Shown here piece after piece: positions 2 to 33,679 of a DNA stretch of 64,000 nt. Within the stretch, counting starts at the first letter, position 1; each line of letters starts with the position of its first letter. The position numbers and the translations under genes are program-made. The notes under the pieces were generated by a model. The model searched no databases. It had not been told where the DNA came from and saw only the letters and a program-made list of their open reading frames with translations. Source of the DNA: Schmidtea polychroa (lineage: Eukaryota). The stretch spans positions 122,552,397 to 122,616,396 of the forward strand of contig CM097887.1 in the NCBI GenBank assembly GCA_044892525.1. The letters are read 5' to 3'.

Positions 2-3000
2 TATAAGAGAGAAAAGAAAGTAAATTGGAAGTTGATAGTAGGTTTTCTACCATTTTTGGCAAAAACAATGGTGTTGCACGGTCATTCTAAAGACATACAT
101 AGAATAAAACGATTGATCAAAATACTGACAAAAATAAAAGGAACTGACGAGGAAGTCGGTAGACGATTTCGGAAAACAATGTATGATGAGGCAACGAGAG
201 CGCAACTGAAAAAGAACAAACCAAAATTCCTAGACAGATTTAGAAATCGATCAAACAGCAGCGATAGTGATGATGACGACAACGGGAATGACAAATACCC
301 ATATCCAAGTAGAAACCCGAATGAAAAGCCAATAGAAACAGCGCCATACTGGGAGAAAGAAAAAACAAATACCTGGATAGCCAACGGAAGTTATATACCA
401 CCGGATATCGTTGGACAACAAGCAGCGCTAACCATGACACAAAATATGTATCCACAGTTACCAAGTCAACCAGGTATGAACTATATGCCGACCCGAAGAA
501 CGAAAAGTGTAGACCAAGCGGACGACGTAAGAACGATAGCAGTGATGAGTTCACCAGGAGGTGCGGCAGTAACAGTCATGATCCAAATCAACGGGAAAGA
601 GACAAGCGCCATGATAGATACCGGAGCAAACGTATCAGCAATAGCAATAAACCAAATACCCAGTAAATGTTGGAAAGATATCGAACAAACAACTATCCAT
701 ATCATCGCATGCAGTAAAGAAACCGTAGACGTAGTAGGAAGATGGTGGACTACGTTACGATATCAGGATAACGAAATTGAAACGTATCTAGCGGTGATAC
801 CCAAACTGAGTGAACCATGTATAATCGGAACGGATTTAATGCCGGAATTGTTTAAGGAAGTAGTAATCGATTTAACAACAATGTGTCTAAAAGACAAAAT
901 GGGTAGAATATGCAAGATGAACGCAATAATTAGATGCCCGGAGAAAATAATTGTACCCGCAAAATCACAGATGATATGTCAAATAAAAGTGGATGCAGGA
1001 ATGGAAGGAGAAGTCATTTTTGAGCCAAGCAAATCATTCGAAAAACGACGAGAATTACCATTGGCAAGAGAAATAATAACAATAAATGAAGACGGGGAAA
1101 TACCAATTAACATCACAAATTTCGAGGAAGAAGACAAGATCATATATGAAAATGAAAGATTGGGTAGATTGACACCCATGATAGACATCGAATTACCAAA
1201 AATCACCAACGAAACAACGAAAGCGGACGAATTATGGATAATTGATAGCACCTTGCTAACGGAAAAAGAAAAGGAGAGACTTCAACAATTATTGATAGAA
1301 TATAAAGATATATTCGCAATTTCGGATTTAGATTTGGGAGCATGCGATGTTACACTACACGCAATACCATTAATAGACGAAACTCCAATCGCACTACGTC
1401 CATACAAACTAGCAGAGAAGCAAAAAGAGATAGCCGAGGCAGAAGTACAAAAAATGCTAGATGCACAAGTGATCGAACCAAGTTGTTCGCCATGGCAATT
1501 TCCAGTAGTCATGGTGAAGAAAAAAGATGGTACTCAGAGATTCTGTATCGATTATCGGAAACTAAATGCAGTAACAAAAAGAGACACATACCCATTACCA
1601 GACATCAATGAGATGTTACTTATGTTACAGGGGGCCGCATATTTTACATCTTTAGATCTGAAAAGTGGATATTGGCAGATCAAAGTCAAGGAGGAAGACA
1701 AAGAGAAAACAGCATTCACATTGGGCCGAGATCTATACCAATTCAGGAAAATGCCGTTCGGACTGACCAATGCCCCAGCATCATTCCAGAGATGTATGAA
1801 TTTTGTCACACACGGGATCAAGCAATGTATGGTATATATTGATGATTTATTAATATATTCAGCAACTTTCGAACAACATTTGGAGGACATTAGAAACGTG
1901 TTCATCCGATTACGACAATGGAAACTGAAACTTAAACCATCCAAATGTGATTGGGCAAAAGAAAAAGTTACGTTCTTAGGACACATAGTGTCAGCAAAAG
2001 GCAAAGAACCAGATCCAAGAAACATAGAAAAAATAAAAACATGTCCAGCACCAAAAACTGTCACCCAAGTTCAAGAATTTCTCGGATTATGCGGATATTA
2101 TCGAAAATTCATCAAAAACTATGCAGGCATTGCGAAACCAATACAAGAATTAGTGAAAAAGGATATTTCATTTATTTGGGGTGCAGAACAACAAAAAGCG
2201 TTTGAGACATTGCGAGATAAATTAATTGAAGCCCCAATACTAGTACATCCTGATTTCAAGAAACCGTTCTTATTAGCAACAGATGCAAGTGGATATGCAG
2301 CCGGAGCAATATTGGGACAACTCGACGAGGAAGGGAAAGAAAGAGTGATTGGATACTACAGTAGAACGTTTAAAAAGCACGAGAAAAACTATTCCGTAAC
2401 CGAGAGAGAAGCGTTAGCAATCATACAAGCAATTAAACATTTTCGATATTTGTTATGGGGACACGAAATATGTATCACCACGGATCATCAACCATTAGTA
2501 TGGCTTGGTCAACACAAAGAAGCTTCAAGTAGATTGATGCGATGGGCAATGCAGTTACGAGAATATTCACCGTTCATAAAATTCAAAGCGGGAAGAGCGA
2601 ATGCCAATGCGGATTGTATGTCCAGATTTATCTTTCCAGATTTGGTAGATCACGAAATGCAACGAATATGTCTGATGGTAGCAGAAGATTTAGATTTTTG
2701 CCAATTACGGAAAGACCAACAAGAGGATACAGAGTTGAAGCAAATCATTGAATATGTGAAAACAGGGAAAGCAGAGGTATATGAGAAAGATCAAAAATTG
2801 AAGGAGCATATGGATAAACATCGACATCGATATATTATCGAGAAGGACTGGTTATTGATAATGGATGGCGAGAAAAGACTGATGTGCATTCCCGAGAATA
2901 GACGTAAAGATCTACTAACACAATACCATGACGGAAGACTCGGAGGACATATGTCATCTAAAAAGACGTTGGCACGAATGAAACAAAAATATTTTTGGCC

Positions 3001-5698
3001 TACATTGACCGAGGATGTAACGGAATGGGTGAAAAATTGCATAACTTGCGCAACCAGAAAAAACACGGGAACAAAATGGAAGGCACCATTAAAACCAATG
3101 CCAGTACCAGCAGAACCAATGACTATGATATCTATGGATGTAGTCGGTCCATTACCAGAATCAGATAGAGGGAATATATATATATTGGTGATTACGGATT
3201 ATTTGACGAAATTCCCCGAAGCATTCGCAATGGCAGATCAGAAAGCAAGAACAATCGCAAAAATACTAGTAGAGGAGATATGCTGTCGATATGGAACACC
3301 GAAACGGATATTAACCGATCAAGGGACAAATTTCATGAGCGAAATAATGAGCGAAGTCACCAACTACTTCAAGATCGCAAAATTAAGAACATCACCGTAC
3401 CATCCACAAACTAATGGTATGACAGAAAGATTCAATGGAACACTGATTCAAATGTTATCAAATTATGTCGATCGTCATCAACGAGACTGGGATGAATATA
3501 TAAAATTATGTCTAATGGCTTACAGAATGTCGATTCACGCGTCCACAAAGATGAGTCCGTTCAAGTTGATGTACGGCAGAGAATGCAATATGCCAATGGA
3601 TTTAGAATATCAGCCACCAATATCACAATACATGGAAATAGACGATTATGTAACCAAGTTCAAGGAAAGAATGCAGGAAATCTGGGAAACTGCAGGATTG
3701 AATATAAAATTTTATCAAGAAAGTTACAAAGATCTACATGATAGAAAGAAAAACGTCAAACAGCATACGTTTCAAACAGGCGATTGGGTGATGATCGAAA
3801 CACCAGAATTAATTCCAGGAACCACCAAAAAATTACAACGAAACGGTAAAGGGCCGTATGAGATTCTATTCGTCGGAGAAACTAATGTAAGAGTACGATT
3901 AATGAACAACCCTTTTACAAGACCAATATACGTAAATGTTGCACGATGTAAGCCAATTCCGAAAACCGCCACCAGTCAGCCAGAAGGACGTACATTAACG
4001 ACAAGATCACAAACGTATAGAATAAACATGTTACAGCAGATAAACGAACCAACAGGTAATCGATTAGGGTTACAACCATCAGAAGCCGAGAAAATCATAA
4101 AGGAAGTAAAAGTTAAAATGCCCGGATGGGCAGAAGACAGATTAGATTTTGAGATATTGGGAGGTCTGCTAACAATGATCGAAAATTATGCAAACCGAGA
4201 AAGAACACACCCATTACTCAGGGTAGTAAAAAGTCAATGGCCTATATTATTTACGATCACAGACCACTATGGAGATACACCGCTGCACAAACTTTTAAAG
4301 GTCGGGAATAATGAACAAATACTGGAAACGATCGAAGCATTTCGCGATTGTAACATTTCGACGGATCAAGAAAACAACCAAGGTTACACCCCACTAATGA
4401 TAGCAGCCAATCGGGATAAAGCTAAAGATATTATCATCGCATTACTTGAAACTGGGTCAAAGATAACCACACAAGACCACAACCAGAAAAATGCACTACA
4501 TCATGCAATCGAAGGGAAAAGTACGGAAGCCTTCATAATCTTAGTAGATCTATTATCATATGAGGATAATAGGGAGATAGGAAACATGTATGACGGGTTA
4601 TTAACTGCAATCAAAGAGAAATTAATAACAATTACTGGAATACTAATTGCGTGGAGGAACCCGATCAAAAACGATTATATGGTAGATATAAACGAAACAT
4701 TTACCAAAGGAGAAAACACCTTGATGAGAGAAGCGATGAGAGGACATCACCTATTCGAAATTCCAAAACAACTACTACAACGTGGCATAAAGTTCTCAAA
4801 TCACAAAGACGAACAACTAATCAGAAAACGAATTACCAACTTAGAAAAAGCTATATCTCAATTTACCGATAAAGTACAAGTAAAATTTTGGGAAACCGTG
4901 AGTGTTTTACATATGATGGAAACTATGAACAACATTCGAGAAAACTACCTAAGTATTATTCAAGTTCTAACGGCAGAGGAACGCATTAACAGTTCGAACA
5001 AGAAAAAGATAAAAATAAAGAAAGTAAAAGCAAGAGAGTCTGAGGAACAAGTCGATCAAACAATAACCGATATAGCAACAACAAGTAAACCAAAGACAAT
5101 AAACTCCGACCAAGAGATAGTAGTACGTAAGGCTAAAGAGGTATTCTTTGAAGAAATGCAAGATCTATCCGATGAAGCGATACTATCAAAAATAACAAAA
5201 ACAGTACACACCTACGCAAGAGACCAGACCACAAATCTAGACATAGAAAAAATAAAAACATTTATACCACTAGCATTCACCTTACCAACAAAAGATTCAA
5301 GAACACCATTACAACAAGCCATTTTAGCAGCAAAAGAAAACAGAGCAATAACCATCATAAGAATCCTCAGGGACTTCGGAGAAGAATCTAATGCAAAAAA
5401 TGAACAAGGAGAAACGGCAATGATGTATGCAGCAATAACAAAGATACACCCGAAAACCTTACATATACTACATCAATCAGGTTCGAGACTGGATGAAATA
5501 TCAAACGAAGGAAATTCTACCATGGATTGGGCAACAATACAACCAAACTTGGAAATGATTAGATTCATTTGTAAAAATGCTACAAGAGCTGAGGTAGAAA
5601 ATATCTGTAAAAACACGTCACAGTTCCAATGGAACGATACGGATGAACTTAGAAGCTATGAAGTTATTGCTAACATGGAGAATACCACAAAGCAATAA
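2..5698 (+). CDS. pol: Retrotransposon polyprotein: aspartic protease, reverse transcriptase, RNase H, integrase, plus C-terminal ankyrin repeats (5'-truncated by the window edge)
   Basis: Frame is open from position 2 (the track's start at 32 is TTG). Protease SAMIDTGANVS (DTG at 617-625); RT RFCIDYRKLN, MPFGL and YIDD (1835-1846); RNase H LATDASG, EREALAI, TDHQPL; integrase HDGRLGGH...CITC, MDVVGPLP, TDQGTNF, ERFNGTL, GPY; ankyrin-like GDTPLH, GYTPLMIAA, QKNALHHA, RTPLQQA, GETAMMYAA. Confidence 0.97.
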   Translation, partial: YKREKKVNWKLIVGFLPFLAKTMVLHGHSKDIHRIKRLIKILTKIKGTDEEVGRRFRKTMYDEATRAQLKKNKPKFLDRFRNRSNSSDSDDDDNGNDKYPYPSRNPNEKPIETAPYWEKEKTNTWIANGSYIPPDIVGQQAALTMTQNMYPQLPSQPGMNYMPTRRTKSVDQADDVRTIAVMSSPGGAAVTVMIQINGKETSAMIDTGANVSAIAINQIPSKCWKDIEQTTIHIIACSKETVDVVGRWWTTLRYQDNEIETYLAVIPKLSEPCIIGTDLMPELFKEVVIDLTTMCLKDKMGRICKMNAIIRCPEKIIVPAKSQMICQIKVDAGMEGEVIFEPSKSFEKRRELPLAREIITINEDGEIPINITNFEEEDKIIYENERLGRLTPMIDIELPKITNETTKADELWIIDSTLLTEKEKERLQQLLIEYKDIFAISDLDLGACDVTLHAIPLIDETPIALRPYKLAEKQKEIAEAEVQKMLDAQVIEPSCSPWQFPVVMVKKKDGTQRFCIDYRKLNAVTKRDTYPLPDINEMLLMLQGAAYFTSLDLKSGYWQIKVKEEDKEKTAFTLGRDLYQFRKMPFGLTNAPASFQRCMNFVTHGIKQCMVYIDDLLIYSATFEQHLEDIRNVFIRLRQWKLKLKPSKCDWAKEKVTFLGHIVSAKGKEPDPRNIEKIKTCPAPKTVTQVQEFLGLCGYYRKFIKNYAGIAKPIQELVKKDISFIWGAEQQKAFETLRDKLIEAPILVHPDFKKPFLLATDASGYAAGAILGQLDEEGKERVIGYYSRTFKKHEKNYSVTEREALAIIQAIKHFRYLLWGHEICITTDHQPLVWLGQHKEASSRLMRWAMQLREYSPFIKFKAGRANANADCMSRFIFPDLVDHEMQRICLMVAEDLDFCQLRKDQQEDTELKQIIEYVKTGKAEVYEKDQKLKEHMDKHRHRYIIEKDWLLIMDGEKRLMCIPENRRKDLLTQYHDGRLGGHMSSKKTLARMKQKYFWPTLTEDVTEWVKNCITCATRKNTGTKWKAPLKPMPVPAEPMTMISMDVVGPLPESDRGNIYILVITDYLTKFPEAFAMADQKARTIAKILVEEICCRYGTPKRILTDQGTNFMSEIMSEVTNYFKIAKLRTSPYHPQTNGMTERFNGTLIQMLSNYVDRHQRDWDEYIKLCLMAYRMSIHASTKMSPFKLMYGRECNMPMDLEYQPPISQYMEIDDYVTKFKERMQEIWETAGLNIKFYQESYKDLHDRKKNVKQHTFQTGDWVMIETPELIPGTTKKLQRNGKGPYEILFVGETNVRVRLMNNPFTRPIYVNVARCKPIPKTATSQPEGRTLTTRSQTYRINMLQQINEPTGNRLGLQPSEAEKIIKEVKVKMPGWAEDRLDFEILGGLLTMIENYANRERTHPLLRVVKSQWPILFTITDHYGDTPLHKLLKVGNNEQILETIEAFRDCNISTDQENNQGYTPLMIAANRDKAKDIIIALLETGSKITTQDHNQKNALHHAIEGKSTEAFIILVDLLSYEDNREIGNMYDGLLTAIKEKLITITGILIAWRNPIKNDYMVDINETFTKGENTLMREAMRGHHLFEIPKQLLQRGIKFSNHKDEQLIRKRITNLEKAISQFTDKVQVKFWETVSVLHMMETMNNIRENYLSIIQVLTAEERINSSNKKKIKIKKVKARESEEQVDQTITDIATTSKPKTINSDQEIVVRKAKEVFFEEMQDLSDEAILSKITKTVHTYARDQTTNLDIEKIKTFIPLAFTLPTKDSRTPLQQAILAAKENRAITIIRILRDFGEESNAKNEQGETAMMYAAITKIHPKTLHILHQSGSRLDEISNEGNSTMDWATIQPNLEMIRFICKNATRAEVENICKNTSQFQWNDTDELRSYEVIANMENTTKQ

Positions 5699-7253
5699 AT
5701 ATGCAATAAATATAAATGAGTTCTACGAAAACGGAGAAAATGCTATGGTTAAAAATACACTAACAAAAGGAGGAACTCCGAAAATCATAATGATCGTATT
5801 AAACAGGGAAGATCTCAAATTCACGCAGAATCTAAACGAACAAAAGCGAATCGGGAAACATCGTCGGATACAATTAAGAGAATTAGTGAAAGAATGGAAT
5901 AGAAAGAGACATGTAGCAACAGGCAGAAAGGAGTTCGAATTCGAAGCAAAATTAGCAAGAAACAGAGTGCTAACGGCATACCGCAGATTGTTGAATGATA
6001 TAAATGTCGAGGACGACATTTTAAACGATAGCGGGGGAGATAAAGACGATAAAGACGACGATAATAATGAAAAAGGTCGAAACGGGAATAAAGAGAAAGA
6101 GAAATCAGAGGAGAATAATCAAGAAAATAACGACGCGAGTAGGAAAAAAGAGGAAAATAACCCGAGAAACCGAATAAAGCAAGAAGAAAAGACGAATAGT
6201 GGAAAACAGAGGGTATGCCTACTTTTTACCAACAAAGAAATGGAGACAAATATGATGATAATGATACTCGTATTAACAATGGTGGAAATGATAACAGCCC
6301 AGGGAGGAATGAGAACGATAAAAGAAGCCAAAGAAACGGAAAATAAGGACAACAAAGAAGAAGAACTAAAACAAGAAAAGAAAAAACAAGTACAAGAGCA
6401 GCAATGGGATCTAAAAGAAGAATGGGATTTAAAAGAAAGGTGTATATTAGGAAGATGTATGTCTAGAGCTTATCAGAGACTAGTGTTAAAAAATGAAGAT
6501 GCAGAACCAATAACGGAAGTAAGAATACAAGAAGCATACCGAAATCGAGACGGAAAGAGAATAACGAAAGTCAAAGGGAAGGAGGTACACCTGGGAAAAG
6601 GAGGTGAGGTAGTGATAACGCAACTCCAGCCAAGAAAAGAACACAAAGTCTGCATTGCAAGATTAAGACCGGGTGAAGACTGTCTACAATATGTAATACA
6701 GCAACAACCTCCAAAAGAATACACAATATGCATCTGGAGAAAAGATACAGCGAGAGAATGTCGACGATACCCTGGGAAAAGAGGGAGGAAAAGAAAAATC
6801 AATGATGAAAAAGATGAGCAAGGAAAACGCAAGAAAAACAGTGAGAAACATCAAGACAATTATGTATCCGAGGAGGAGATGGAGAAAATACAAAAAATGG
6901 CAAAGGAAGGTATGAACGAGGAAATAGCAAGAATACGAGGAATGATGAAAGGAAATGGCAAAGAAGGTAATCTAAAAAGCACAGAAGCAATATCAACAAT
7001 AACGAACAAGGAAAAAGCGGAAATTATAAGCGTAAAACAGATGATGTGGATCAGCGGCATAATAATAACAGGGGCCTTTTTAATCATAACGGGGGGGACA
7101 ATAAAAATAATCAAAGATAGACGGCATCGCGGAGAACTAGAAATGGCCAGAATAAGAAATTTTCAACATCGTGTAAAACGACCAAGTAATATCAAGCAGG
7201 AACAGTGGGTGGAGGCCTGGAATGCTCAGCGCCCTCCAAGCTCACGTATATAG
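5643..7253 (+). CDS. ORF2: N-terminus continues the ankyrin array of pol; the C-terminal part (from ATG 6240) resembles a type I membrane protein
   Basis: LLLTWRIPQSNKYAININEFYENGENAM matches ILIAWRNPIKNDYMVDINETFTKGENTL in pol. Hydrophobic MMIMILVLTMVEMITA, a six-Cys region, TM-like WISGIIITGAFLIITGGTI and a basic tail. Confidence 0.75.
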   Translation: MNLEAMKLLLTWRIPQSNKYAININEFYENGENAMVKNTLTKGGTPKIIMIVLNREDLKFTQNLNEQKRIGKHRRIQLRELVKEWNRKRHVATGRKEFEFEAKLARNRVLTAYRRLLNDINVEDDILNDSGGDKDDKDDDNNEKGRNGNKEKEKSEENNQENNDASRKKEENNPRNRIKQEEKTNSGKQRVCLLFTNKEMETNMMIMILVLTMVEMITAQGGMRTIKEAKETENKDNKEEELKQEKKKQVQEQQWDLKEEWDLKERCILGRCMSRAYQRLVLKNEDAEPITEVRIQEAYRNRDGKRITKVKGKEVHLGKGGEVVITQLQPRKEHKVCIARLRPGEDCLQYVIQQQPPKEYTICIWRKDTARECRRYPGKRGRKRKINDEKDEQGKRKKNSEKHQDNYVSEEEMEKIQKMAKEGMNEEIARIRGMMKGNGKEGNLKSTEAISTITNKEKAEIISVKQMMWISGIIITGAFLIITGGTIKIIKDRRHRGELEMARIRNFQHRVKRPSNIKQEQWVEAWNAQRPPSSRI

Positions 7254-7781: not shown

Positions 7782-7870
7782 ATATAACCTAAAATAGCAA
7801 TGTAAATAACTGTAAATAAAAATACGAAACTGTACCAGTAACGAATATATGTATATATATAATTATAGAA

Positions 7871-9258
7871 ATGGATAAGCGACAACGAGAAGAATTCAAA
7901 GAAATTGTTGAACAAATCAGAAAGTCCACCACAATTCGAATACACAACCATGTAACGTGTGGAATATGCAAGAGCTTATTAAGAGAACCTCACCAAACCA
8001 GATGTGGATGCAGAATGTGCAGAGAATGTGTAGAGGAGATAATAAAGAAGGGACCACAATGGTGCCCAGTATGCAAAGAAACAATGATAACAAGTTTGGG
8101 AGATACAAACGAAGATAAAGCAGCTGTAAAAGATATGTCGAATGCAAACCTAGGATGTAAAAACACCCATGTAATTGGCGAGGAGTGATATGGGAAGTGA
8201 GGCAACATATGGAGCAATGTGAATATAAAATCAGTCAATGCAAACGTTGCCAAGAAGAGATTAAAGTCAATGAAGAAGCAGAACATCAAAGTCGATGCGA
8301 AGAAAGACTGGAGAAATGTGAGTATTGCGGAGAAACCGACACCTGGAAAAAACTAATCAGTCAACATCACAACATACAAGAGGAGAAAGTGTGCGCAGAA
8401 TTCAGAGGAGAATGTCCCAATAAATGCGATAAACCCGGAGTAATAAAACTCGCTCAACATCTGAAAGAATGTGAAAGGAAAAAGATAAGGTGTGTGTTAG
8501 GAAAATGGGGATGTCAGAAACAATTACACCGAGGGGAATTACCCCAACATCTAGCAGAAAACGTATCAACACACGCGGAAATATGGTCAACGGTATTACA
8601 AGAAAACGAAAGGAAAACCGAAAACTTAGAAAGAGAAATAGTCTCGCTAAAAGCGTTGGTAAAGGAACTATTGGAAGAAAAGGAAGCATTTGAAGAGGCG
8701 AGAACAAGTACAAAGATACAGACAAATCTAGTAGAAACTAGCAACATTATGGTGAAAGAACTACATCAAAAAGTAAGCGAATTAAACCTCAACGAATTAA
8801 TACCTACGGCTCCATACATATGGAAAATAACGGGAGTAAAAGAGAAGATGCAGAGAGCGAGAAATGGAAAGGATACAACCTTACTAAGTCCAGCATTCTA
8901 CTCATGGAAAAACGGGTATAAAATGAAAATGAAAGCATACCCCAATGGGGATGGAAGTGCATACGGAACGCATTTCTCAGTATTCTTCTTGATGTGCAAA
9001 GGGCCATACGACGAGTTAATAGAATGGCCATTCAAAGCAAAAATAGACCTCGCAATGATGAACTATCAAAGTATACATGAACAGAGTTTCCATACAGCGG
9101 GAAACCTCGTATGTTACCAAAGGCCCTTGGAAGAAGAAGGACCAGCAACTGGAGCACCAAATTTCATCCTACAGCGGAAAGTAGAAGACATGACGAGAAA
9201 CGACACTATATACATAAAAATAGCGGTGAGGCGAGACGGGAAGAGTAGGACTGAGTAG
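7871..9258 (+). CDS. TRAF-family protein (RING, TRAF zinc fingers, coiled coil, MATH/TRAF-C), intronless, split by a 1-nt frameshift near 8160-8170
   Basis: RING CGIC...QTRCGCRMCREC...CPVC in 7871-8188. In the other frame PCNWRGVIWEVRQH, then C/H zinc fingers, a coiled coil and MATH motifs YIWKI, SPAFYS..GYKM, YPNGDG..GTHFSVFF..KGPYD..EWPF, YQRP. Confidence 0.92.
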
Positions 9259-12077: not shown

Positions 12078-12839
12078 CATCGACCATTCATAAACTTTGT
12101 GTGTATAAATCCGGTCACCTAAAGTGGCCACTGCTTGCTTATATTTGTCCTTTTATCTGTTTAATTAAAGTATTATTTAGTTATTTTAATTTTATGTTTG
12201 TGTGAATGATGATCGTGAAATTAGTTGTTATGCCGAAAAAAGGTATGATTTAAACGTATGATATTATGTGAATTGCGGGGCGCAATTTTAACGGGCCCCG
12301 GAGTGATTTGTTGGGCTAAAACGTGGAGTTTCGAAAACTGGAGCAAATAGAAAAGTAATCCTTGAAAAATTAACGAAATAAAATAAAAATATAAAGTACC
12401 ATCAAATTCTCACTAATAAAGCAAAAAGGAACAATAAAATATCAATAAGAGAATAAGAATAAGTAAAACAAACTAAATAAAACCCAATAAACCCCTTGAG
12501 ATTTAGAAATAAAGCGATTTAGGACCCAGCAGATGAAATAGAATAAAATAAGTAAAAAAGTGACAACAAATAAACGAGAAATTTAAGAAATAAATAAAAA
12601 AAAATAAAACTATCTTTAAGTCTAATTAAAACAAAAAATTATATTACAATAAAAATAGGAGGAAAATAATAAAAATAAGAAAATAAATAAAATAATAATA
12701 AGAAATAAGTTAAGTCATTAAAATCTAATATATTATAATAAAAAACATAAAAATAATAATAAATAGTAAAAATACAAACAAGTCGTGTCCTGATTGGACG
12801 AAAAATAATATATAAGGAACGGAAAATATCTGTAGATTA

Positions 12840-12919
12840 CCATTTTTAAAAAATATTCTACAGGTGACCATTTTTAAAAAATATTCTACAGGTGACCACT
12901 TTTAAAAAATATTCTACAG
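12840..12919. repeat. 28-bp tandem repeat, about 3 copies (CCATTTTTAAAAAATATTCTACAGGTGA)
   Basis: Units start at 12840, 12868 and 12896 (third unit partial, one mismatch). Confidence 0.92.
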
Positions 12920-15219
12920 ACTTGACAGATTTCGGAACCTTTAATTAGCCTACAGCGAACTAGTTCAGAGATTTCCAAACCAAACCGAGGAAGGAATATA
13001 TAGAGGCCAAACTACAAATCCATTCGGGAAAAAATCTTAAATTCAACCGATTTTAACTTCAGTTTTCGAAACTCAAGGTATGCCTCGACAGTTGTTTTAT
13101 TTATGGTTATTAGGTTAATTTCGTTAATTATTATAAATATAATAAAACAATTTCATATAATAAATTTATTTAAATGAAAAGTTGCCTTTCTTCATGGTAC
13201 CGGCGACTGTACCATCTGAGAGCTCCCAGTATGATGTGGACGAGTTGGAATTGCACTGCAGTTGAGGACACCACCGTGGAAAGGTTGGTATGCATAAGAA
13301 ATCACGAACATGCTGAAAGGAGAATGTGATATTTGTAGAGAGTGATATTGTCATATTAGATATCCATCAAGGAGACGAGGAGGTTTCGGTTACGTAGGAG
13401 GAGCAACATCATACTCGGAGATCCAAATGATATGGTCGCCGGGTAAATTTTATTTATGCATTTTTCTATCATTCAGTTTGATTATTGTATTGTTGATTTG
13501 ATTGCATGGAAACGAGTTGATTGGTCCCTCATGACGGTGCAAGGAGGCGGCAGCAATGAATGCCTTCTTGGGTGTGTCGTGAGGGGTGAAGAAACTCAGT
13601 AGGTGGAACATCCAGTTGATAAGTGAAAATTTCCTTCATCAAGCGCGATCGTCCATAGAGCTTACCATCGATTCATTTAGCCCAATCGAGATTTCCAGTA
13701 GATGTAGAGATGATTTGAATTCCGAATGCAGGCAGTTCAGAGCGAGATAGGCAGTGACGATAATAATCCACATAGCTAGGAGAAAGATTTTTTTTTTGAT
13801 ATTCAGCCGGTCAATCGACGTAGCTAGGAAAGAGTAGTGTTGACCATGGATTGCAAGTAAATCCAACGATTTTTCAGTGACGCTCTGTGTTTGCAAGGTT
13901 CTGTCTGATTTGTGCCGTCATGATGTTAGTGGTTACATCCATTGCCGATGTACTCTTACGATTTGATTGTCGTCCGTGAGTCGCCAATGCTAGTGATAAA
14001 AATCTCTCGCTGACAGGGAAGTAAACATCTTGTAGGGAAATTATCAAAATTCTTACTTCGAGCTCGCAGACAGTAGTTGCCAACGATAACGAAATCAGTT
14101 GATTTACATTAGCCAGCGTAGAGTTAGTCGACAGGAGATATCTGATAATGTCCTGGAGAAAGAGATAACATGTTAGTTTTTCTGGGGAAACGTCAAATGG
14201 ATAAGCTGATAGTCATTGATCTGAATTTAGATCGTAAAAGGAAATTAGATGATAATGTTGAGCTTACCCAATAATCTATGAAGTTGTCGCCCACTCAGAT
14301 TGAATAATCTGCTTTTCCAATTCATCTACGGCTGCTTATTTGAGGGATCTATTACGCAACCACTATTATTCCGACTTGAGCATGCACATACACACGCACC
14401 ACAGTCAAATATACATAGGGCAGTGTAAAAGTAAATACACAATTTTTGGTGAGGTAATAGCGGTATGATGATGTGAATTTTTCTAGAACGGTGAGATAAT
14501 AGGATGAGGTAAAGGAATGGATTTCCCCTACACAACTCGATATATCATAATTTCTCACAACAGCATAAACCATCATTCGCAGTGATAGCCAACATACAGT
14601 TACAGATACCACCAGGAGTAATGACACACCTACACAGTCAATCATAATGCATAATCACAAGTGAACGTTTTCCATGACGACGATTTCGACGCGTTATTGG
14701 AATTAATTAGATGTAGATTTAGAGCAGAATTTTCAACTGATCACTTGATCAATTCCATAATTTTGAACGAGATAAAAACATAAATAATCTATTCCGTCGC
14801 CGTGAATTATTTCTCTGTACTTTTAGGTACGCCTACATCGACGGATTGCCATAATGATATCGGCAAATTTTTAAATAAAAATATACTAAGGGGAACAAGG
14901 TGGAAGGGTTTTTCAGTGAGAAAGACGAGTTTTACCTGGGGATGGTCCCATCCGAAAGTAAACCCAAAGGGCGAGGTTCATGTAGAGAGAATTTTCCGTA
15001 TGAAATCCCCGTTTCCTTTTCTTAATTTACACGAATTAGGTGAAGAGATTTGAATGTTTACAACTGAATGACTGCGTATAGAGATGGATGAAGAAGTGTG
15101 TGGGTCATCGTTGGGTGGTATGCTTGATAAACTCCAAAGCCACGCTCAAAAATTTGATTATTCTTTTCTCACTAATAGAGGTTTTTCCGAGTAAATATAA
15201 ACAATGATTGATTTTCTAG

Positions 15220-15981
15220 ATGGCTACATCGTCCAACCACGCCAAAGAACTTCGCCCGTGTTTTTCTTGTGCGGACAAGAACGCGGATATCGCCCAACTG
15301 CATTTATATATCGGGGCTCTCAAAAAGAGAATTGATCTCTATGAAGGAACGTGGTTCTCCCCGCCACAAATGAAAGAGGAACGCAAGAAAATTCTCCGAT
15401 TAGAGCATTGCAGGGACAGCCTGCTAGAGGAAAGCCGGTGTCAGCGGCTCACCATCAAAGCGCAATCGGAAGCCCTCCATAAGGTGTATACGGAGGCAGA
15501 ATTGGCTAAGCGGGTGCGAGAATTTCCCGTTCTAGAGGGGACGAATGTCTTTCCCCCTCACCACCCGTCTCCTACTTCTTCCAGCTCGCACTGCCAGGGG
15601 CACGGCTCACAACTGCCGCCCATTCCAGCCCCGGTGTTGTCAAGTCACCAGCCAAAGACAGGTGGACCTACCAATCCCATCGTAGCTCCAATCCTGGTAG
15701 CACAAATCGGTACCACGAACACCGAAAACCCCCCGACTACCCGCAAACGGAAACGGCCAACTCGAGCCGAGAAGAACCAAAAACGCCGAGATGCGATGAC
15801 AGCACTCGAGACGTCCTTATCGGCGGCGAATTCAAAAATCCAAGAGATAACGTCCTCCCATTCAATCCCCTCAAAGGAAGTCTTCCGCATTGTTCCAGCT
15901 GAGGGCATCAAATACATTGTAGATAGCCGATTACCGGTCGACATAGATGAGATACTGGCCGATGGAGATAACTTTGTTTAA
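15220..15981 (+). CDS. ORF inside the candidate LTR (253 aa): CxxC, coiled coil, P/S/H-rich linker, basic NLS-like segment
   Basis: ATG-to-stop ORF directly preceded by TTTTCTAG. Contains PCFSCAD and RKRKRPTRAEKNQKRR. Visibly more GC-rich than the upstream ORFs. Confidence 0.7.
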   Translation: MATSSNHAKELRPCFSCADKNADIAQLHLYIGALKKRIDLYEGTWFSPPQMKEERKKILRLEHCRDSLLEESRCQRLTIKAQSEALHKVYTEAELAKRVREFPVLEGTNVFPPHHPSPTSSSSHCQGHGSQLPPIPAPVLSSHQPKTGGPTNPIVAPILVAQIGTTNTENPPTTRKRKRPTRAEKNQKRRDAMTALETSLSAANSKIQEITSSHSIPSKEVFRIVPAEGIKYIVDSRLPVDIDEILADGDNFV

Positions 15982-16805
15982 CGTGACGTACAATTGAGTT
16001 TGATTTCCTCTTCATTGAGTTGTAAATTATCTTGTGAATGTTGCTAATGTTATGTCTTTTTGACTGCTGTTGATCTGTTAGTAGTAACGATATTTTTATA
16101 GTTTCAGCGTCAATAAAATTTTTTTGTTTGATTTCAGTTTTGTCGAGTTTTCATATATTTGTTTGTGCAATTAGGATAAATGAGATAATGCTGCGGAATG
16201 AAGGTAATTAAAGTTGAAGGTCGTTCCTTTGGACCAGGATCAGACTGAGTGACACGCATGTATGTGGGTAAGTCCTTCTAAGGCACCGTAGGACCCGAAC
16301 CGAGAAAGGGTTAGGAGTAGTCCTAAGGCAGGGGCTCACCTGCTAACTTTTTCCGACCCGTGTGAGCAGCACCAACATGGAACATCACCATGGGCTCATA
16401 CGTGGGAATATGCAATCGATCATTTGGAGTATGTGTAAGAAATGTATAACTGAGTAATGATGCTTGATAGGTGTGATGGAAAGGCATGCATAATTTTCTT
16501 TCTTCTCCACATACGCCAACACGTATGAAAACAGAAAACGTTAATTAATTAATTAATTGGCTAATGGAAAACCCGAGCCAATGGAGAACCCGAGAGATAA
16601 AGGAAACCCGAGCTGGGTAAACAAGAAGAAAGGCAAACAAAAGGAAAATTTGGGCCCATTAGCTTGACACAATGATTAATGGGAAAAGAGTAAGGAGAAG
16701 ATAGCGCGCGTAGGAAGACCGGTAGGGCCATTAATTATCTGGATTCGTTGGACCATTATGGATGACAGCCGAAGCAAACACGTAGGAGAAAATGTCAAAC
16801 GAAAG

Positions 16806-16909
16806 ATTGGCTCGGCAATAACCATTTGTCATCCTGATTTCGAGGAGTATATAAGCAAAGGGAAAATCAGAGAAAATCGGCATTTTGCCTCAGGTAGGTT
16901 AAGAAGAAT
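16806..16909 (+). promoter_or_regulatory. Putative LTR promoter (CCAAT box, TATA) and downstream splice donor
   Basis: ATTGG at 16806, TATATAA at 16848-16854, TCAG about 30 nt downstream, CAG|GTAGGT at 16901-16909. The TATA and donor are not conserved in the related LTR at 42.8 kb. Confidence 0.4.
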
Positions 16910-17421
16910 TAGACTGTAGGAAAAGTGGTAAACGAATTAGGGAAGTAGGGAAAAGAAGAAATAGAATTAAGAATACGGAAAGGCGAAAAGGGATCAAACC
17001 AAAGAGAAACCGAGGAAAAAGAGAGTCGAGATAACTAAAGGATCAAAAGGTGAATATTGTTTGTTTGCAAAGCATCAACGCCGAGCGGAGAATCGTATAA
17101 AACTTTGATTGGTAATTGTAGCGTGATAATAAATTGTGAACTTGTTGTTTCAATATACGTTGGGTCGTTCATTGTTTTACTTTAAAGAACACCAGGAGTC
17201 AGAGAGAACCGACTTGAAATAATCCAAAACCCAACAGACTAATGAAATCAACAAAGTATTTGATCTTTTGTCAAAACAAAAATAGAAGAAATGACAATTA
17301 ATCTCAACAATTCTTTTGAAATAAGTAATGAGTAAAATCTAGTTATTTTTTTTATTTTAGTATGAATCTGGACATTTAAAACAAATATCAAGTAATATCA
17401 ATATTTGATACAACCCATTAA

Positions 17422-18394: not shown

Positions 18395-19642
18395 TTATTT
18401 ATTCGGCACAAACATTTTAATCCCCTCTCTCTCGATTTCTGTATAATTCAATATATCCAACAATTCTTTATCAACTTCATCTGTTTTAGTTAGCGACGAA
18501 ACTCGATCACAGGCCAGTTTGTTCGCTGTGCAAATGTTCTTGATGGCCAGAATGGCATGCTGCTGGATATAGGGATTGCATAAATCGATTCTTGTGCTCG
18601 ACATTACAAGTTCCAATCCACCAGTGTCAACGACAATGTCTTGAATTGATTTATTATCATGGACTAAGTTAGAAATTAATTTGATAGTGAATTTTTTTAT
18701 GTTGAATATTGGTCGATCTATAAAAGTTTCATTTTTACTGAATGAATAATGGCTTTTAAAAATTTTATTTTCTTGAGGATCTTCATCGTATTGACGGAGA
18801 ATTCTTAGAACTTCTAACAATGACTTGATAAGAGCAGATTGTATTTCACATGAAATTATTTCTTTGATGTTATGAATATTGGATAATATCATAAGAGACA
18901 ATTTAATTATATCCAATTGCGATTGGTCAGATTTTTTAAATAAATCTTTATCGTCTTCTACTTTCAATAGCAAATAATCGACTAAAAATTTCGTATTTTC
19001 GATAGACATGTCAATATGTGCTTCATCAATAAAATATAACAACTGTACAATTACAACAGGATTACAAAATTTGAAACAATTTCTAACAAATCTAGAAGAT
19101 TTTTCCAACATTTTAGTTAGTAAAATATTACCATTTTCTATTTCAGATTCGTCAACTGCTTTGAAAATATTAGATATTAAAGAGAAATTTATACATGAAC
19201 AAACATAATCACATGAAAATATTTTGCTACTGTAAACATGCAATATCAGCCAAATAATAGTTCTGATTTCAGTGGAAGTTGAAATTTCAACGCAAACAAA
19301 AATTAAAGTGTTCAATATTTTTATAAGGCGATAATCGTATTGGTGCAAATTATCTTCAGAACATAGAAAGTTGTGTAACGTTTGGGATGCAACTAACTTT
19401 ATTGTTTCATCATCACATTCAAATTTAAATGATAAGCAGCAAAATATGAAGTCTAAAAGTTCTGTGAAACATTCGGAAGGAAATTTTTTCAATCCTAATG
19501 AATTTCTAAAAATTTGAATTGACTTAATTAGCAATTTTATATTATTGCAAGATTCTGATTTCAATAATGGTTGAACCTCTTTGAAGATTTTTAAAATATT
19601 CTGTTTATTGTAACTATCGATGTCTTTCAAATTAAAATTCAT
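18395..19642 (-). CDS. ATXN10: Ataxin-10 homologue (ARM-like repeat protein), single exon, 415 aa
   Basis: C-terminal KKFTIKLISNLVHDNKSIQDIV...GGLELVMSSTRIDLCNPYIQQHAILAIKNICTAN matches the ataxin-10 signature domain. Confidence 0.85.
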   Translation of the reverse strand: MNFNLKDIDSYNKQNILKIFKEVQPLLKSESCNNIKLLIKSIQIFRNSLGLKKFPSECFTELLDFIFCCLSFKFECDDETIKLVASQTLHNFLCSEDNLHQYDYRLIKILNTLIFVCVEISTSTEIRTIIWLILHVYSSKIFSCDYVCSCINFSLISNIFKAVDESEIENGNILLTKMLEKSSRFVRNCFKFCNPVVIVQLLYFIDEAHIDMSIENTKFLVDYLLLKVEDDKDLFKKSDQSQLDIIKLSLMILSNIHNIKEIISCEIQSALIKSLLEVLRILRQYDEDPQENKIFKSHYSFSKNETFIDRPIFNIKKFTIKLISNLVHDNKSIQDIVVDTGGLELVMSSTRIDLCNPYIQQHAILAIKNICTANKLACDRVSSLTKTDEVDKELLDILNYTEIEREGIKMFVPNK

Positions 19643-20075
19643 TAATTAATTTAAATGCAACTGCGGTTTGCTTAATAATATTTAAACAAAGTTTGAGAAT
19701 GAAATCCTTAATTAATTTTTAATTGAAAATGTTTAAATAATTAGAATATATATTTTTGCAATGTTAAACAAGTCTCTTATAATGTTGTAATTTTCAATCC
19801 AAATCAATTAACTTTAAATGTTTATTTAACTTTTTGGTATTTTTAAAAAAATGTTTATTTCATAATTGTGTTATAAAATAATTTTAATTTTATTTCCAAA
19901 ATCTGAAATAAAAATTATTAAACTTCACTAAAGAAAATATTCTGAGAGTAACTTATTTATTCTATAAGTCAAAAGTTTTAAACAGTCAAATAAAATGACC
20001 TTCATATATTTAGTTGTTATTATTTGCAAATTTTAATTTCAGAACAAAATTTTAAAATATATAATTTAAATTTTA
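19643..20075. promoter_or_regulatory. Probable bidirectional promoter between ATXN10 and TRIM37
   Basis: The two start codons are head-to-head with only 433 nt between them. Confidence 0.6.
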
Positions 20076-21514: not shown

Positions 21515-24500
21515 ACTATTATAACAAATGAATAGATGAACATAAAAAGATTTTTAAGAAATTCCATTTAAAAAAAGTAATAAACTAGCAACTGAAGAAC
21601 ATTTGTAGATCGTTTTGAAAACCTTGTTCATTTTTTGTTATTTCACCCTCCCTTGGATATTCACTAAAATATTTGATTATGTAATAATTACACAATCCTT
21701 TTCGCACAGTTGAATAATTGTTCTAAATTCCCAATATCATATTTGTACATTTTTTCAGTATTACTTCCGTCTTCTCTTGCAATTAATGCCTAGGTCTTTT
21801 ATTCGAATAGCCCAAAACAAAAAGAGCTGTTTAACAAAAATAACTTCTTTATTACTCAAAGGTATTAAATAACCCCAACATCTTACCAAGGCGAGCTGTT
21901 TGTATACATTATACCACAAGCATCTTGAAGTAGTACTTTAGGACCCATCATTTATTGGGTCACGCCCTATACTCCATGATCCTCATTTTCTTCTGAAAAA
22001 TATTTATAGATATAAGTAGATTCTAATTTGTTCAATGCCAGACTATTTATATTTTTGCCAGTATCGAAAGTTGGGGCTCTAAGGCTAGAAATTAATCCTA
22101 TAATACTGTTATACCCTCTTTTTCCTACTAATACTGTATAAATATGCATGATGAAAAGAATAAAATAAGGTATGGTGAGGTTTATTTCTAGCCTTATAAC
22201 CCCAGGTTTCCACACTGGTAATTTTTTATATTATAACCCCAAATCCCCTCCCCCACCTTCAAACTTATAATTTATTATAAACTAGCTGGGGTACCTGGTG
22301 TTGCACGATTTAAAAAATAGTAAACAGATTCAAATAAAGAAATTTATTTCAATTCATTCATTTAAAAAAAATAATTTAAAAAATACATAAAAATTTAATT
22401 AAAAAAAGTACATATAATTTATATATCTCTTATATCTATTTAAATGTAAAACTTAAAACGGCAGCCAGCCGGTAAAAAATGTGTCAAATGAAAAATTGAA
22501 ATAATCCTATTTTATAAACCTAACATGATCTACAACTTTTATTTGTAACATTGTTGCTAATTTCAGCTCCTTGGGGTATCTACTGTAGTAAATCAAGGTG
22601 ACCCTGAGTAGTGTTAGGGTACCCTAGGGGTGGTAACCTGGGGTTGAAACATAGCCTATGACCTGTCCCGAGTCAAATGAGGGTCACATGCAAAATTTCA
22701 GCACCCTAGGTTCAACGGTGGGGAATTCTATGGGTAACAAACTAACAAACTTGCATCTTTATATATTAGATAATGATAAATTATCCCAGAACTATACGTT
22801 TAAAATTAATAATTTTTCAAATTTTTGTAAATTAAGCGGGATTGACTGTATTGAAAGCAAATAGTAATTTCATATTAAATAATTTTGTTCCATACAGAAA
22901 ACCTCTAACATAACGCCTGGGAATTAAGCTAAAAAATTTAGAATTTAATTTCCAAATCATGCTTTTTTTCTCTATTGCGAGTACAGTGCCCAGGCGTTAT
23001 TTTCGGGAAAGACTGTAGGGTTGGCAACACTGTCATTTTTTTCCAAAGATTCCGGACTTTGAGTTTTCAGTTAAATCATTTGAATTAACTAAATGTTCAA
23101 ACTCATATATGCGAAAAGCTACCCTGAAACGTATTTGCACTCTATCTATCTATAATATAGATTCTATATCAACCACCGACAAACTCCACCTGTATTTATA
23201 CCTTTTATTTGAATTGAGATGGTCACCTGGCGGATATTGTAGATAGTGGCCGTGCTTACAACTGTGTAGCAGTAAATTAGAGAATAGTAATATAGAATAA
23301 TAGTTGAAAGAAATATATAATTATTAAAGCAAGCTATCATTTACAAATACTGAGAATTGTTAAGATTTAATTTTATATCATGAATAAATATTTTATTTTT
23401 AATCCCACGTTTTCCTCCGCATTGAAATTATTTTTCTTCAGGACGTATCAGCGCAATGTTATCAACTCTAATTACTACTATTTATTTTTCATTACATTAT
23501 AGTTGGAAATACTCCTTTTCTAGGATGCACCTAAATTCCCATTATGATCAATTCTATAATATTTTCATAATCTTCATACAATTTCTTTTTCAAACGAATA
23601 TTTCTCTGCTAACGAAGTTTTGTATTTAGAGATGGATAACCGAACAGAGGTCTCAGTGTCCCCATTGTAGGTTAGTAAATAATAAATTATAGCGTTATTA
23701 TCTCATATATGATTAAGATCTTCATTGCACTTGCATGAGCTAATCAATTGTCGATGGGTTGATGAAGTAACTCAGCAGTTAGACTCATTGCAAAAAACTC
23801 ATTCTACTATCTTACAAAGGTCTCTCGAAAATATTCACCGTGACATTGACAATGGGTAATAGTAACAATTTCTCATTATTTCTAAGTTTTATCTCTTACT
23901 CTCTACATATGGGACAGATGTGAGATGCACGATGAGAAACTATCAGTTTACTGTTTGACATGCTCAAAGGCTATTTGTCATCAATGTGCCCTATTTGATG
24001 GCCAACACAGTCAGCACTCATTCAAACCGCTCAATGAGATCTATGAGAGTTATGTGGCACAAATACAAATAAAAGCCAATCATTTAAAGCGAAGACATGT
24101 TGAATTGATTTCTCTAATTCAAGAAGTGGTAATTGTTCGTTTTTTGTGTTACTAATGTTTGTTAATCACTGCACATGGGAATAAGTTATAACTTGATCGA
24201 TTTTTCTAATTGTGCTGTTTTTACACAAACTCTTACCAGAGCACATCTGTGAATTTATTTGTCTTGGTCCCTATTCTACTGAATTACCAAATATCATACA
24301 ATTGTTCACTTACCGTTCATTTATTGTTCATTTTCCTATACATATATTTGATATTCATAATTAAAAGTCAAGTTATTATCAAATTTTATTAATTCAAATA
24401 AATAATATTCCTTCAACATCTTCCGAGAAAAATCTTCTAAAGTAGTAATGTAATCATTAGGAAATAGACAAACAGTATCATACATTCACACAATTTTTAA

Positions 24501-27500
24501 TCAAATTGTTAGTAACATTAATAAAAATAATTAATCACTTTAATTAATTATTTAATCCTAATTATNNNNNNNNNNNNNNNNNNNNNNNNNNNNNNNNNNN
24601 NNNNNNNNNNNNNNNNNNNNNNNNNNNNNNNNNNNNNNNNNNNNNNNNNNNNNNNNNNNNNNNNNNNNNNNNNNNNNNNNNNNNNNNNNNNNNNNNNNNN
24701 NNNNNNNNNNNNNNNNNNNNNNNNNNNNNNNNNNNNNNNNNNNNNNNNNNNNNNNNNNNNNNNNNNNNNNNNNNNNNNNNNNNNNNNNNNNNNNNNNNNN
24801 NNNNNNNNNNNNNNNNNNNNNNNNNNNNNNNNNNNNNNNNNNNNNNNNNNNNNNNNNNNNNNNNNNNNNNNNNNNNNNNNNNNNNNNNNNNNNNNNNNNN
24901 NNNNNNNNNNNNNNNNNNNNNNNNNNNNNNNNNNNNNNNNNNNNNNNNNNNNNNNNNNNNNNNNNNNNNNNNNNNNNNNNNNNNNNNNNNNNNNNNNNNN
25001 NNNNNNNNNNNNNNNNNNNNNNNNNNNNNNNNNNNNNNNNNNNNNNNNNNNNNNNNNNNNNNNNNNNNNNNNNNNNNNNNNNNNNNNNNNNNNNNNNNNN
25101 NNNNNNNNNNNNNNNNNNNNNNNNNNNNNNNNNNNNNNNNNNNNNNNNNNNNNNNNNNNNNNNNNNNNNNNNNNNNNNNNNNNNNNNNNNNNNAAAGACT
25201 TTATTAATAAAAATCGTCATTCGTACATCTTTTCAATATTTATTATTTAAAATTGTTATTTATAATTTAAAAATTTATAGATTTAATAATTTGTTTATAA
25301 ATTATCAAAATTGTAGTTATTCATCCCTAGTGAATGTAGATAGTGATGATGATAGTGATGCTAACTAAATAAATAGTGAAAAAGATGTGCGTAATAATAA
25401 ATAATATTAATAAATAGATATTAAACAATTGGAAGCAAATATATATTTATTTTTATTAAGTTTATCATTATAAAAAATTCTAAATTTACTTTTATTTCAT
25501 TTATAGTAAATTACGATTTAAATTTGAGTTATCTTTTATCAATTTATGAATTCTTGAAATCTTTGAATGAAATCTTTGAACTTATTTTATTGTACAAATG
25601 TTTTTTATTTCAAATTAATAATAGTGTAATAAAAAATAATGTATTTTGTGAAGTCCGGTGTATCTCTATATATAAGTGCTTAAACTCTAGTGAACTTCTA
25701 AAAGTTCACAGGCAAACCAAATCAAGTATCTTGCCAAAAATGCTAATATTTCCTAAATTTTTCAATTGATCAATTATATTTCATTCTTAAATTTCAATAA
25801 ATAAAATAAAAATGAATTTTTCATCACCAGCAGCTTAGAATTGAAAGTCTCCTTCAGTTTTCATGTTTAATTTCACGTTACAGAATTACTGCTTTTACTC
25901 AATCGTTTATTCTCTCGAATTCTTGAATAGAGATGACACGCAACCTTTCCTTTATATGTAGCTTATGTTCAGTACCGATTTTTTACTCTTGTAAATTTCG
26001 AATTATTTAAGTTGATATTAAATCAAATCATATTTGTTTCCTAACAAAAGTAAAGTGTCATTGACGCTATAATTTAACCCGAAGATCATTTATGTGTTGT
26101 ATTAATATGTTTAGGAGAAAAACGTTGATTTAGTCAAGCAAGCTAAAGATGAGAGAGTTCGAGAAATTCGAAATGCTGTCGAATTGATGATTGCTAAATT
26201 AGAAGCCCAATTGAAATCCAAATGTTTGACATTAATGGAACAGAGAAATAATTTGGCGGAAGTGCTTTTGAAATGAAATCATGTTTTCAAATTTGATATC
26301 TATTTCAGGAAACAGAAATAATGGAATCATTATTACAGGATGTAGAACAATCTCTTAATCGTTTCAGTAAGGCTGAACTAATAGCTAAATCATTAGATAT
26401 CCTCAATAAATTTGATGAAGTTCAACGGAAACCGATTCCATCTATTGTCAGTGCTCCAGTTCTTTCTGAATTTGTCAGGTGGGTCTTTAATATGTTTCAC
26501 AGATTTATTACAATAACAAACAAAATTGCATGTTTAAATATATTTCTTTGATTTAGTGAGATAGTTCCACAATATGATAGTACGACTTTCGTTATGAATA
26601 ATTTTTCTACTCTTCAACAAAGCGCAGATCCCGTTTATTCTCAAGAGTTGCACATTTCTGGCCTTAGTTGGCGTTTAAAGGTTTATCCTGACGGAAACGG
26701 CGTAGTTAGAGGTCATTATTTATCGGTTTTCCTGGAATTATATGCTGGATTACCGGAAACATCAAAGTCCGTAATTATTTTCCATCTTTTATGAAGTTTA
26801 AATATTAAATACAAATTATTAAATAAAAATATTAATTATTGAATATTAATTATGAAGTTTAATCATTAAATTTTTGGAATAATTTAGGTATGAATATCGG
26901 GTGGAAATGATTCATCAAATTAGCCGAGATCCATCGAAGAATATCGTTCGTGAATTTGCGTCTGATTTTGAAGTCGGTGAATGCTGGGGATATAATAGAT
27001 TTTTTCGTTTGGATCTCCTAGCTAGCGAAGGTTATCTTGATCCTGAAACTGATATTTTGATATTAAGATTTCAGGTAATAGTAATTAGTAACTTATATAT
27101 AAATGTGTGATTAATTAATTTAAATGACTACACTTTTAATTCCTGATTAAATTACACTACATTATTTATACACAACACTAATTACTGGTTCTCCGTCAAG
27201 TACTCCTGTTTTCTTTCTAAAATCATCCTTAGAATGTATGTGGTTGTTACTTTGGTTTTTCTGTTATCTTTCATTTTAAAAAAAAACTTTGTGTATTCGT
27301 CATGTCCTGGAGTATTTCCTTGAGAACTGTTTTAGGGTGACCTACCTCTGCTCTTTGTCATTGGTATGCATCTAAACTAAATCGACTAACAAAATCAATT
27401 AAAATTTACAATGTTGACAAGCTGATATTTAATTAGCACAATTTGTTGACAGGTTAGACCACCAAATTTCTATCAGAAATGTCGTGATCAACAGTGGTAC

Positions 27501-33066: not shown

Positions 33067-33097
<31 letters not shown>

Positions 33098-33651
33098 GAA
33101 TGATCTATTTGCTGATTTACAGAGTATTTACAGAGGTTTCATTTTCGATCTCAATTTTCGATTCTTGATTGGAGTGGAGTAACTGAGTTAGATTATGAAT
33201 GTTTCGGATATGTTGTATTGCATATCGAATGTTGAAAAATGTATGAAACTTTCCAGTGTAGCAAATAANNNNNNNNNNNNNNNNNNNNNNNNNNNNNNNN
33301 NNNNNNNNNNNNNNNNNNNNNNNNNNNNNNNNNNNNNNNNNNNNNNNNNNNNNNNNNNNNNNNNNNNNNNNNNNNNNNNNNNNNNNNNNNNNNNNNNNNN
33401 NNNNNNNNNNNNNNNNNNNNNNNNNNNNNNNNNNNNNNNNNNNNNNNNNNNNNNNNNNNNNNNNNNTACGGTTTATTTATCATTTATTATTATTTATTTA
33501 TCATGATTATTATTATTAATATTAATCATTATTATTTATTTATCATTTGTTATATATAAATTTTTATTATTATTATTTTTTATTATTACCATATTTTTAC
33601 GCTTATAGGAAGCACCTGATTACGAGATGCAGGTTACAGGGCTTTCAGTAA
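20076..33651 (+). CDS. TRIM37: E3 ubiquitin ligase TRIM37 (RING, B-box, coiled coil, MATH, low-complexity tail), multi-exon; 3' end uncertain
   Basis: GT-AG exons with consistent phase: 20076-20150, 20205-20306, 23630-23670, 23718-23855, 23918-24128, 26115-26261, 26309-26478, 26557-26766, 26888-27074, 27453-27717, 27770-gap, 29182-29687, 29744-30094, 30634-30785, 32460-32636, 32736-32943, tentative last exon 33609-33651. Peptides [51 protein letters not shown] and [25 protein letters not shown] are diagnostic. Confidence 0.95.
21464..21512. repeat. (TA)n microsatellite
   Basis: Pure TA run; similar runs near 33066-33092, 56804-56827 and 58259-58316. Confidence 0.95.
22281..22772 (+). mobile_element. 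Non-autonomous helentron-like (DINE-1/Lep1-type) element in TRIM37 intron 2
   Basis: Starts ACTAGCTGGGGTACCTGGTGTTGCACG and ends ...AACAAACTAACAAACTTGCATCTTTATATATTAGAT, resembling the ends of HINE/Lep1 elements from memory. Confidence 0.45.
22895..23015. mobile_element. Short Tc1/pogo-type MITE
   Basis: TA|CAG...ATAACGCCTGGG and CCCAGGCGTTAT...CTG|TA imperfect inverted ends. Confidence 0.45.
31620..32237 (+). mobile_element. Non-autonomous Helitron in a TRIM37 intron
   Basis: 5' TCTATTATATAA; 3' GC-rich hairpin GGCGCC-TTA-GGCGCC about 10 nt before CTAG, followed by T. Confidence 0.55.
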
Positions 33652-33679
33652 AAGATTAAACGTTCTTTGGGAAAATGTC

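Follow-up and report, generated by a model that had tools for sequence, protein, structure and literature searches.

A doubled ankyrin cassette behind the integrase of a Burro-type giant gypsy element in Schmidtea polychroa

The window, a 64,000-nucleotide stretch of the S. polychroa genome, raises the question of what ankyrin repeats do when they are read in one frame with the integrase of a gypsy-type retroelement. The original prediction was that two duplicated ankyrin blocks occupy the place where other gypsy elements often hold a chromodomain, and that they could tether the integrase or act as a released IkB-like effector. Our best reading, to which we give about an even chance, is a protease-released doubled ankyrin adaptor that would act on host signalling.

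A giant Burro-type element

The ankyrins belong to a giant gypsy element of 30,595 bp, the 3′ half of which lies in the window (Table 1); its 5′ LTR and the rest of its giant ORF are present in the DNA upstream. In the window copy the giant ORF starts upstream of the window and is frame-broken (4,283 aa), and ORFs of 4,724-4,817 aa (threshold at least 4,700 aa) were found in 40 of 150 scored copies drawn from 979 candidates. The N-terminus of the ORF matches retrotrans_gag and CCHC knuckles (E 6.4e-10 and 1.6e-8), and a fusion glycoprotein (Monjiviricetes_fusion, E 1.3e-72) follows in frame between gag and protease. Matches to BCL2 (E 0.039) and ubiquitin (E 0.064), both below cut-off, lie at the expected place ahead of env. 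The interval between protease and reverse transcriptase (RT) holds a conserved spacer of ~160 aa, for which a Pfam scan gave no dUTPase match (the published Burro call used HHpred). No BIR domain was detected in the frames scanned, the upstream accessory ORF yielding a RING finger only.

Table 1. Features of the giant gypsy element, in window positions
Feature	Position	Strand	Remarks
Giant ORF, 3′ part	2..5698	+	End of env-like region, protease, RT, RNase H, integrase, ankyrin cassette
Aspartic protease	575..850	+	Pfam RVP, E 1.2e-7
Reverse transcriptase and RNase H	1514..2566	+	Pfam RVT_1, RT_RNaseH
Integrase	2888..4018	+	H2C2, core, GPY at 3851; without chromodomain
Protease-site-like motif, integrase/ankyrin border	4019..4033	+	Putative cleavage site
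Duplicated unit A, ~340 aa	4091..5113	+	Approximate limits; cap-like segment, then five ankyrin repeats (first at 4268, shared motif at 4643) and a helical tail
Duplicated unit B	5114..6080	+	Approximate limits; five repeats, the first at 5294, with the shared motif at 5667; window copy frame-broken near 5635
Second, weaker protease-site-like motif	6210..6224	+	Ahead of signal-like stretch; not top-ranked in subfamily 2
Membrane-protein-like tail	6252..7253	+	No family match
Accessory ORF, 128 aa	7395..7781	+	Kept in 6/6 sister copies
TRAF-like accessory gene	7820..9258	+	RING, zinc fingers, MATH; frame-broken near 8160-8188 in window copy
Three accessory ORFs, 347, 234 and 217 aa	9468..12077	+	No family above cut-off
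3′ LTR	12309..16521	+	4,213 bp, TG...CA; 1 mismatch and 2 single-base gaps vs 5′ LTR
Target-site duplication, 4 bp	16522..16525		Target is LTR-like stretch of sister giant gypsy family

Giant gypsy-like elements called Burro or GYPSM1 have been described from planarians (Jurka 2007 and Grohme 2018, via PMC6431247, section 7). As described there, Burro elements exceed 30 kb with LTRs, have an internal region of up to 25 kb and encode an ORF1 of ~4,900-5,100 aa, the polyprotein domains of which include ankyrin repeats; BCL2-like and ubiquitin-like motifs before env, a dUTPase-like region between protease and RT, and BIR are also listed, and the cargo domains are flagged as needing experiments (PMC6431247). 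The window element resembles this description in its length of >30 kb, LTRs, single ~4,800-aa ORF, Gag and CCHC knuckles, in an env between gag and protease, in the order protease, RT, RNase H and integrase, and in its ankyrins and MATH/TRAF cargo. No BIR match came from the frames scanned. The element's TRAF, complete from RING to MATH, is a gene of its own placed downstream of ORF1, whereas that of Burro1 lies within ORF1 and that of Dugesia tigrina upstream. Judged by its domains, the element is a Burro-type gypsy, a fresh member of a known planarian group whose architecture is itself already known. The Burro text of PMC6431247 section 7 mentions neither a doubling of the ankyrin unit nor a border motif or membrane tail, the comparison being with Burro as described there.

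As the LTR pair is near-identical, the insertion of the window copy is recent. It went into LTR-like DNA belonging to a sister giant gypsy family (window 16522-17240; segments L022, 1-5723, and L023), 49% identical to the element over RT-integrase. Two frame breaks (5635 and 8160-8188) and two single-base LTR gaps stand against one LTR substitution, an indel excess that may be an assembly error. The 3′ LTR also contains a 253-aa ORF (window 15220-15981) without Pfam match, which is two split frames in the 5′ LTR. A primer-binding-site-like sequence 3′ of the 5′ LTR (segment L021, 35-60), identical in six of six 5′ LTR ends, resembles a tRNA-Pro site.

An old duplication read in frame with the integrase

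Each ankyrin block on its own passes the Pfam cut-off for Ank_2 (A, E 2.5e-10; B, E 2.1e-8), confirming the predicted ankyrin identity. The predicted internal duplication is likewise borne out by self-alignment, in which the two blocks match in the same register (23% over 155 aa, E 7e-11). Over the full units there are 64 identities in 288 aligned residues (22%), a score reached by none of 1000 shuffles. The offset from A to B is 340-342 aa and is equal at repeat 1 and repeat 5 in all three copies compared, with repeat spacings of 37-34-36-39 and 36-34-36-39. The motif said to end both blocks is indeed present in A and B, and in none of 164 other ankyrin proteins, but it lies in repeat 4 of 5 rather than at the block end. 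The "charged linker" between the blocks consists in part of the flanks of the duplicated unit, and its charge is mild (K+R 0.17, D+E 0.14).

The signal of common descent is unevenly spread along the unit. The last 59 residues of A and B score 79 against each other (the highest scores from 164 other ankyrin proteins are 55 and 46) and repeat 4 scores 56-67 (best 45-52 of 167 others); for the 60 residues ahead of repeat 1 the score is reached by 0-10 of 1000 shuffles, with unrelated proteins reaching 45-47. No duplication signal is found in the first three repeats alone, where the A/B score of 67 is below the generic ankyrin median of 89-93, and the segment 45-115 aa after the start of repeat 5 is not above shuffles (60-283 of 1000). 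As no similarity between A and B was found at the DNA level, the duplication event must be old. Taken from these alignments, the ankyrin cassette is an old tandem duplication of a ~340-aa unit, each with five divergent repeats. In a search of 1.84 billion representatives the best 150 matches were all to generic ankyrins, and homolog and Atlas searches gave generic ankyrins or nothing, with no Burro protein among the matches; since the libraries seemingly do not contain this family, the lack of close matches is not a sign of novelty.

The frame was predicted to run about 600 aa beyond the integrase GPY motif, and it does so, with 615 aa from GPY to the stop at 5698; the block starts YGDTPLH (4268) and DSRTPLQ (5294) were also correctly placed. 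That the integrase frame includes the shared motif of block B is true of the family and not of the window copy, in which the match to a sister copy follows the first frame until ~5635 and the second frame beyond, leaving the shared motif of B in the second frame. Among the 19 nearest copies by DNA similarity (40 of 352 candidates were scored and 20 fetched, including the window copy), 17 keep a single frame from GPY through both blocks and two break at another nearby position. With the block B motif in frame in these 17 copies, the in-frame reading holds at the level of the family. A stop between integrase and ankyrins in the family, proposed as the observation that would count against the fusion, is not what is seen, as 17 of the 18 nearest copies covering the junction are open across it. 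In subfamily 2 the junction is open in 10 of 10 fetched copies and both blocks in 8 of 10, these copies having been picked partly for long frames. The frame of unbroken copies extends ~520 aa further, into the membrane-protein-like tail. A programmed frameshift was considered and rejected, as most copies need none and the breaks of other copies fall at different positions.

Cleavage or tethering at the integrase border

A protease-site-like motif starts 56 residues past GPY. Scored with 8 upstream sites only, of which 5 are themselves putative, and with a motif defined after inspection of the sequences, this border motif ranks first of 1,123-1,131 positions in three of three copies; with the 4 sites that lie at Pfam-defined borders it comes first in two copies and is tied first in the third. 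All 17 of 17 aligned copies retain it, one with a gap immediately behind it, and its variation in subfamily 2 stays within the motif alphabet. The strict motif, a pattern chosen after inspection, has 9 matches in three frames against ~0.7 in shuffles, and the matches include the C end of the protease and the RNase H/integrase border. With the 8-site score, no position between A and B comes near the border motif. Applied to the integrase end of the ankyrin-less sister family, this score yields no site. On this sequence pattern, the aspartic protease of the element probably cuts the ankyrins from the integrase at the border motif.

The ankyrins could instead remain on the integrase and steer insertion. 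Chromoviruses carry a chromodomain at the integrase C terminus, and the window element is like them in having an extra in-frame domain past GPY, with an open junction in nearly all covering copies. It differs in that this region is ~735 aa rather than a small domain, in the protease-like site at the border, ranked first or tied first, and in the spread of its copies; no chromodomain was matched by Pfam in 3851-4300 or beyond. The 144 copies are dispersed over the lengths of all four large contigs (KS p 0.11-0.49; p 0.75 for the largest 10-Mb bin), and their distribution does not differ from that of 65 sister-family copies (p 0.28), in a coarse-scale test that omitted the copies on small contigs (6 of the element and 3 of the sister family). 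Contig C4 is mildly under-represented (chi-square p 0.039), which could be taken to favour steered insertion, but sister-family copies are likewise low on C4. Twenty-four insertion flanks (21 distinct) have no common site, and 5 touch giant-gypsy DNA among the sequences compared; such dispersal tests would miss targeting to chromatin on a fine scale. The insertion-site bias suggested as a check was not seen at the coarse scale, either as clustering or as a difference from the ankyrin-less family. Given the border motif, the lack of a chromodomain match and the unclustered copies, tethering appears quite improbable.

The ankyrin-less sister family is abundant in the genome and has an env. Immediately behind its integrase lie a signal-like stretch, an unclassified ectodomain and a transmembrane helix; its membrane tail does not align with that of the window element (E 4.4). 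An Ank_2 scan of the genome surfaced no further Burro families, and an env scan of the genome together with five fetched loci gave ankyrin-less sister families only. One sister-family locus (L045, 6168-7625, minus strand) has a 486-aa accessory ORF without Pfam match above cut-off; by eye we take its motifs to be DEDDh exonuclease-like. At C2:37.30-37.36 Mb, three LTR ends (L053-L055) share one flank at ~27-kb intervals, which reflects either a tandem segmental repeat or an assembly duplication.

Selection and possible functions of the ankyrin protein

In 17 aligned copies (11 of them in pooled pairs), picked partly for long open frames and so favouring low values, dN/dS within subfamily 1 is 0.065 for block A and 0.12 for block B, and within subfamily 2 it is 0.064 for both; within-subfamily values are ~0.2 for the spacer and 0.01-0.06 for RT and integrase. 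Between subfamilies the values are 0.038 (A) and 0.026 (B), with dS near saturation, several values undefined and 95% intervals for single pairs of 0.019-0.088 and 0.013-0.051. As estimated from these substitutions (dN/dS 0.03-0.12), purifying selection acts on both ankyrin blocks. The ankyrins might instead be a functionless passenger captured from the host, which would fit the broken unit B of the window copy and of two of the 19 nearest copies. At the level of the family this neutral explanation is refuted by the dN/dS values and by the 84-89% protein identity of the blocks between subfamilies whose synonymous sites are near saturation, and we regard it as extremely implausible.

By analogy with viral ankyrin proteins, the ankyrins are most likely a two-armed binding adaptor on host signalling proteins. 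The region would be a cargo module, translated within the ~4,800-aa polyprotein, for which the open frame is observed, and freed from the integrase by the element's aspartic protease at the border motif. The product would be a protein of ~735 aa, made up of two ~340-aa units in tandem, each carrying five divergent ankyrin repeats, its C end either freed by a second cut or anchored through the signal-like stretch that follows. Its two arms might bind host proteins of cell-survival, ubiquitin or innate signalling, as suggested by analogy and by the company it keeps, and together with the TRAF, RING, ubiquitin-like and BCL2-like cargo it may keep the cell permissive for the element.

Poxvirus ankyrin/F-box proteins are viral ankyrin adaptors that act alongside ubiquitin-ligase functions, and the window element similarly places ankyrins beside ubiquitin-ligase-type cargo; Pfam scans of the element gave no match to F-box, PRANC or SOCS-box. 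A scan for RHD_DNA_bind was blank, as was its control, and one for RHD_dimer found a single gene, which we take to be NFAT-like from its motifs; host RHD-ANK genes were not recovered by these scans. The ankyrins in the polyprotein of the planarian nidovirus PSCNV, related to host RHD-ANK proteins, have been proposed as immune modulators or IkB mimics (PMC6211748). Both systems have divergent repeats next to a hydrophobic stretch in the polyprotein of a planarian parasite, processed in PSCNV and putatively cleaved here; the window element has two five-repeat units against three repeats in PSCNV, and closeness to RHD-ANK is a result for PSCNV. Divergent RHD factors are present in S. mediterranea, and the NF-kB homologues of planarians are divergent and poorly assigned (PMC13563047); with the kinship of the nidovirus ankyrins to host RHD-ANK this indicates that a class of targets exists. 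Of the two predicted roles, that of a released effector fits better than that of a tether, but nothing points to IkB in particular, as the best solved-structure matches are to generic ankyrins, with no IkB or NF-kB protein among the best 60 of 148 PDB matches. We consider it unlikely that the released doubled protein specifically blocks a planarian Rel-homology factor or TRAF/ubiquitin signalling. If true, the element would have in it, together with the TRAF, RING and BCL2-like genes, an immune and cell-death kit in the style of DNA viruses, and one that arose independently of the planarian nidovirus.

The ankyrin protein might also serve the element itself. Once cut from the integrase, it could be held by the signal-like stretch on the cytosolic face of a membrane and link capsids to the element's membrane proteins. 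The ankyrins adjoin the signal-like stretch and the membrane-protein-like tail, which has two borderline hydrophobic stretches (Kyte-Doolittle 1.66 at ~6252-6308 and 1.73 at ~7032-7088); the second protease-like site scores weakly, a fusion glycoprotein is encoded in frame, and a TM+ANK product has been proposed for the planarian nidovirus (PMC6211748). However, the abundant sister family has an env and a membrane tail behind its integrase but no ankyrins, so assembly in general does not require them. Such a scaffold is conceivable, though on balance rather unlikely.

An adaptor acting on host proteins, the reading we prefer, lends itself to experiment, as purifying selection, a defined doubled unit and a predicted N-terminal cut together specify a protein for expression and pull-down. 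Binding to host signalling proteins, if it occurs, would be a pointer to parts of planarian innate immunity. BURRO1 is expressed and is repressed by PIWI, its RNA rising upon piwi-2 RNAi (PMC8532177). We found no paper on the doubling, processing or function of Burro ankyrins, in a search that lay outside most subscription papers.

The TRAF-like gene of the element is one frame of 478-479 aa in five of six sister copies. Element-borne copies of this kind could inflate planarian TRAF gene counts; the words transposon and retro- are absent from the main text of PMC7586133. Farther upstream, an accessory ORF (L021, 479-973) ends in a RING finger (E 3.2e-8). By its pattern this ORF is presumably IAP-like.

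The genome is AT-rich, and the window contains several N stretches (24500-39250 and 59870-60050) and no tRNA genes in its 64,000 nucleotides. Beyond the element it holds a host ataxin-10-like gene (18395-19645, minus strand) and CLC chloride-channel exons (43840-44262 and 50409-51203, plus strand), with a Tc5/pogo-like transposase (48512-49882, minus strand) between the latter. A long frame on the reverse strand, to the left of the 5′ LTR (L022, 8463-9734, minus strand, in reverse-strand positions), looks to us by eye like a fragment of a hAT-type transposase.
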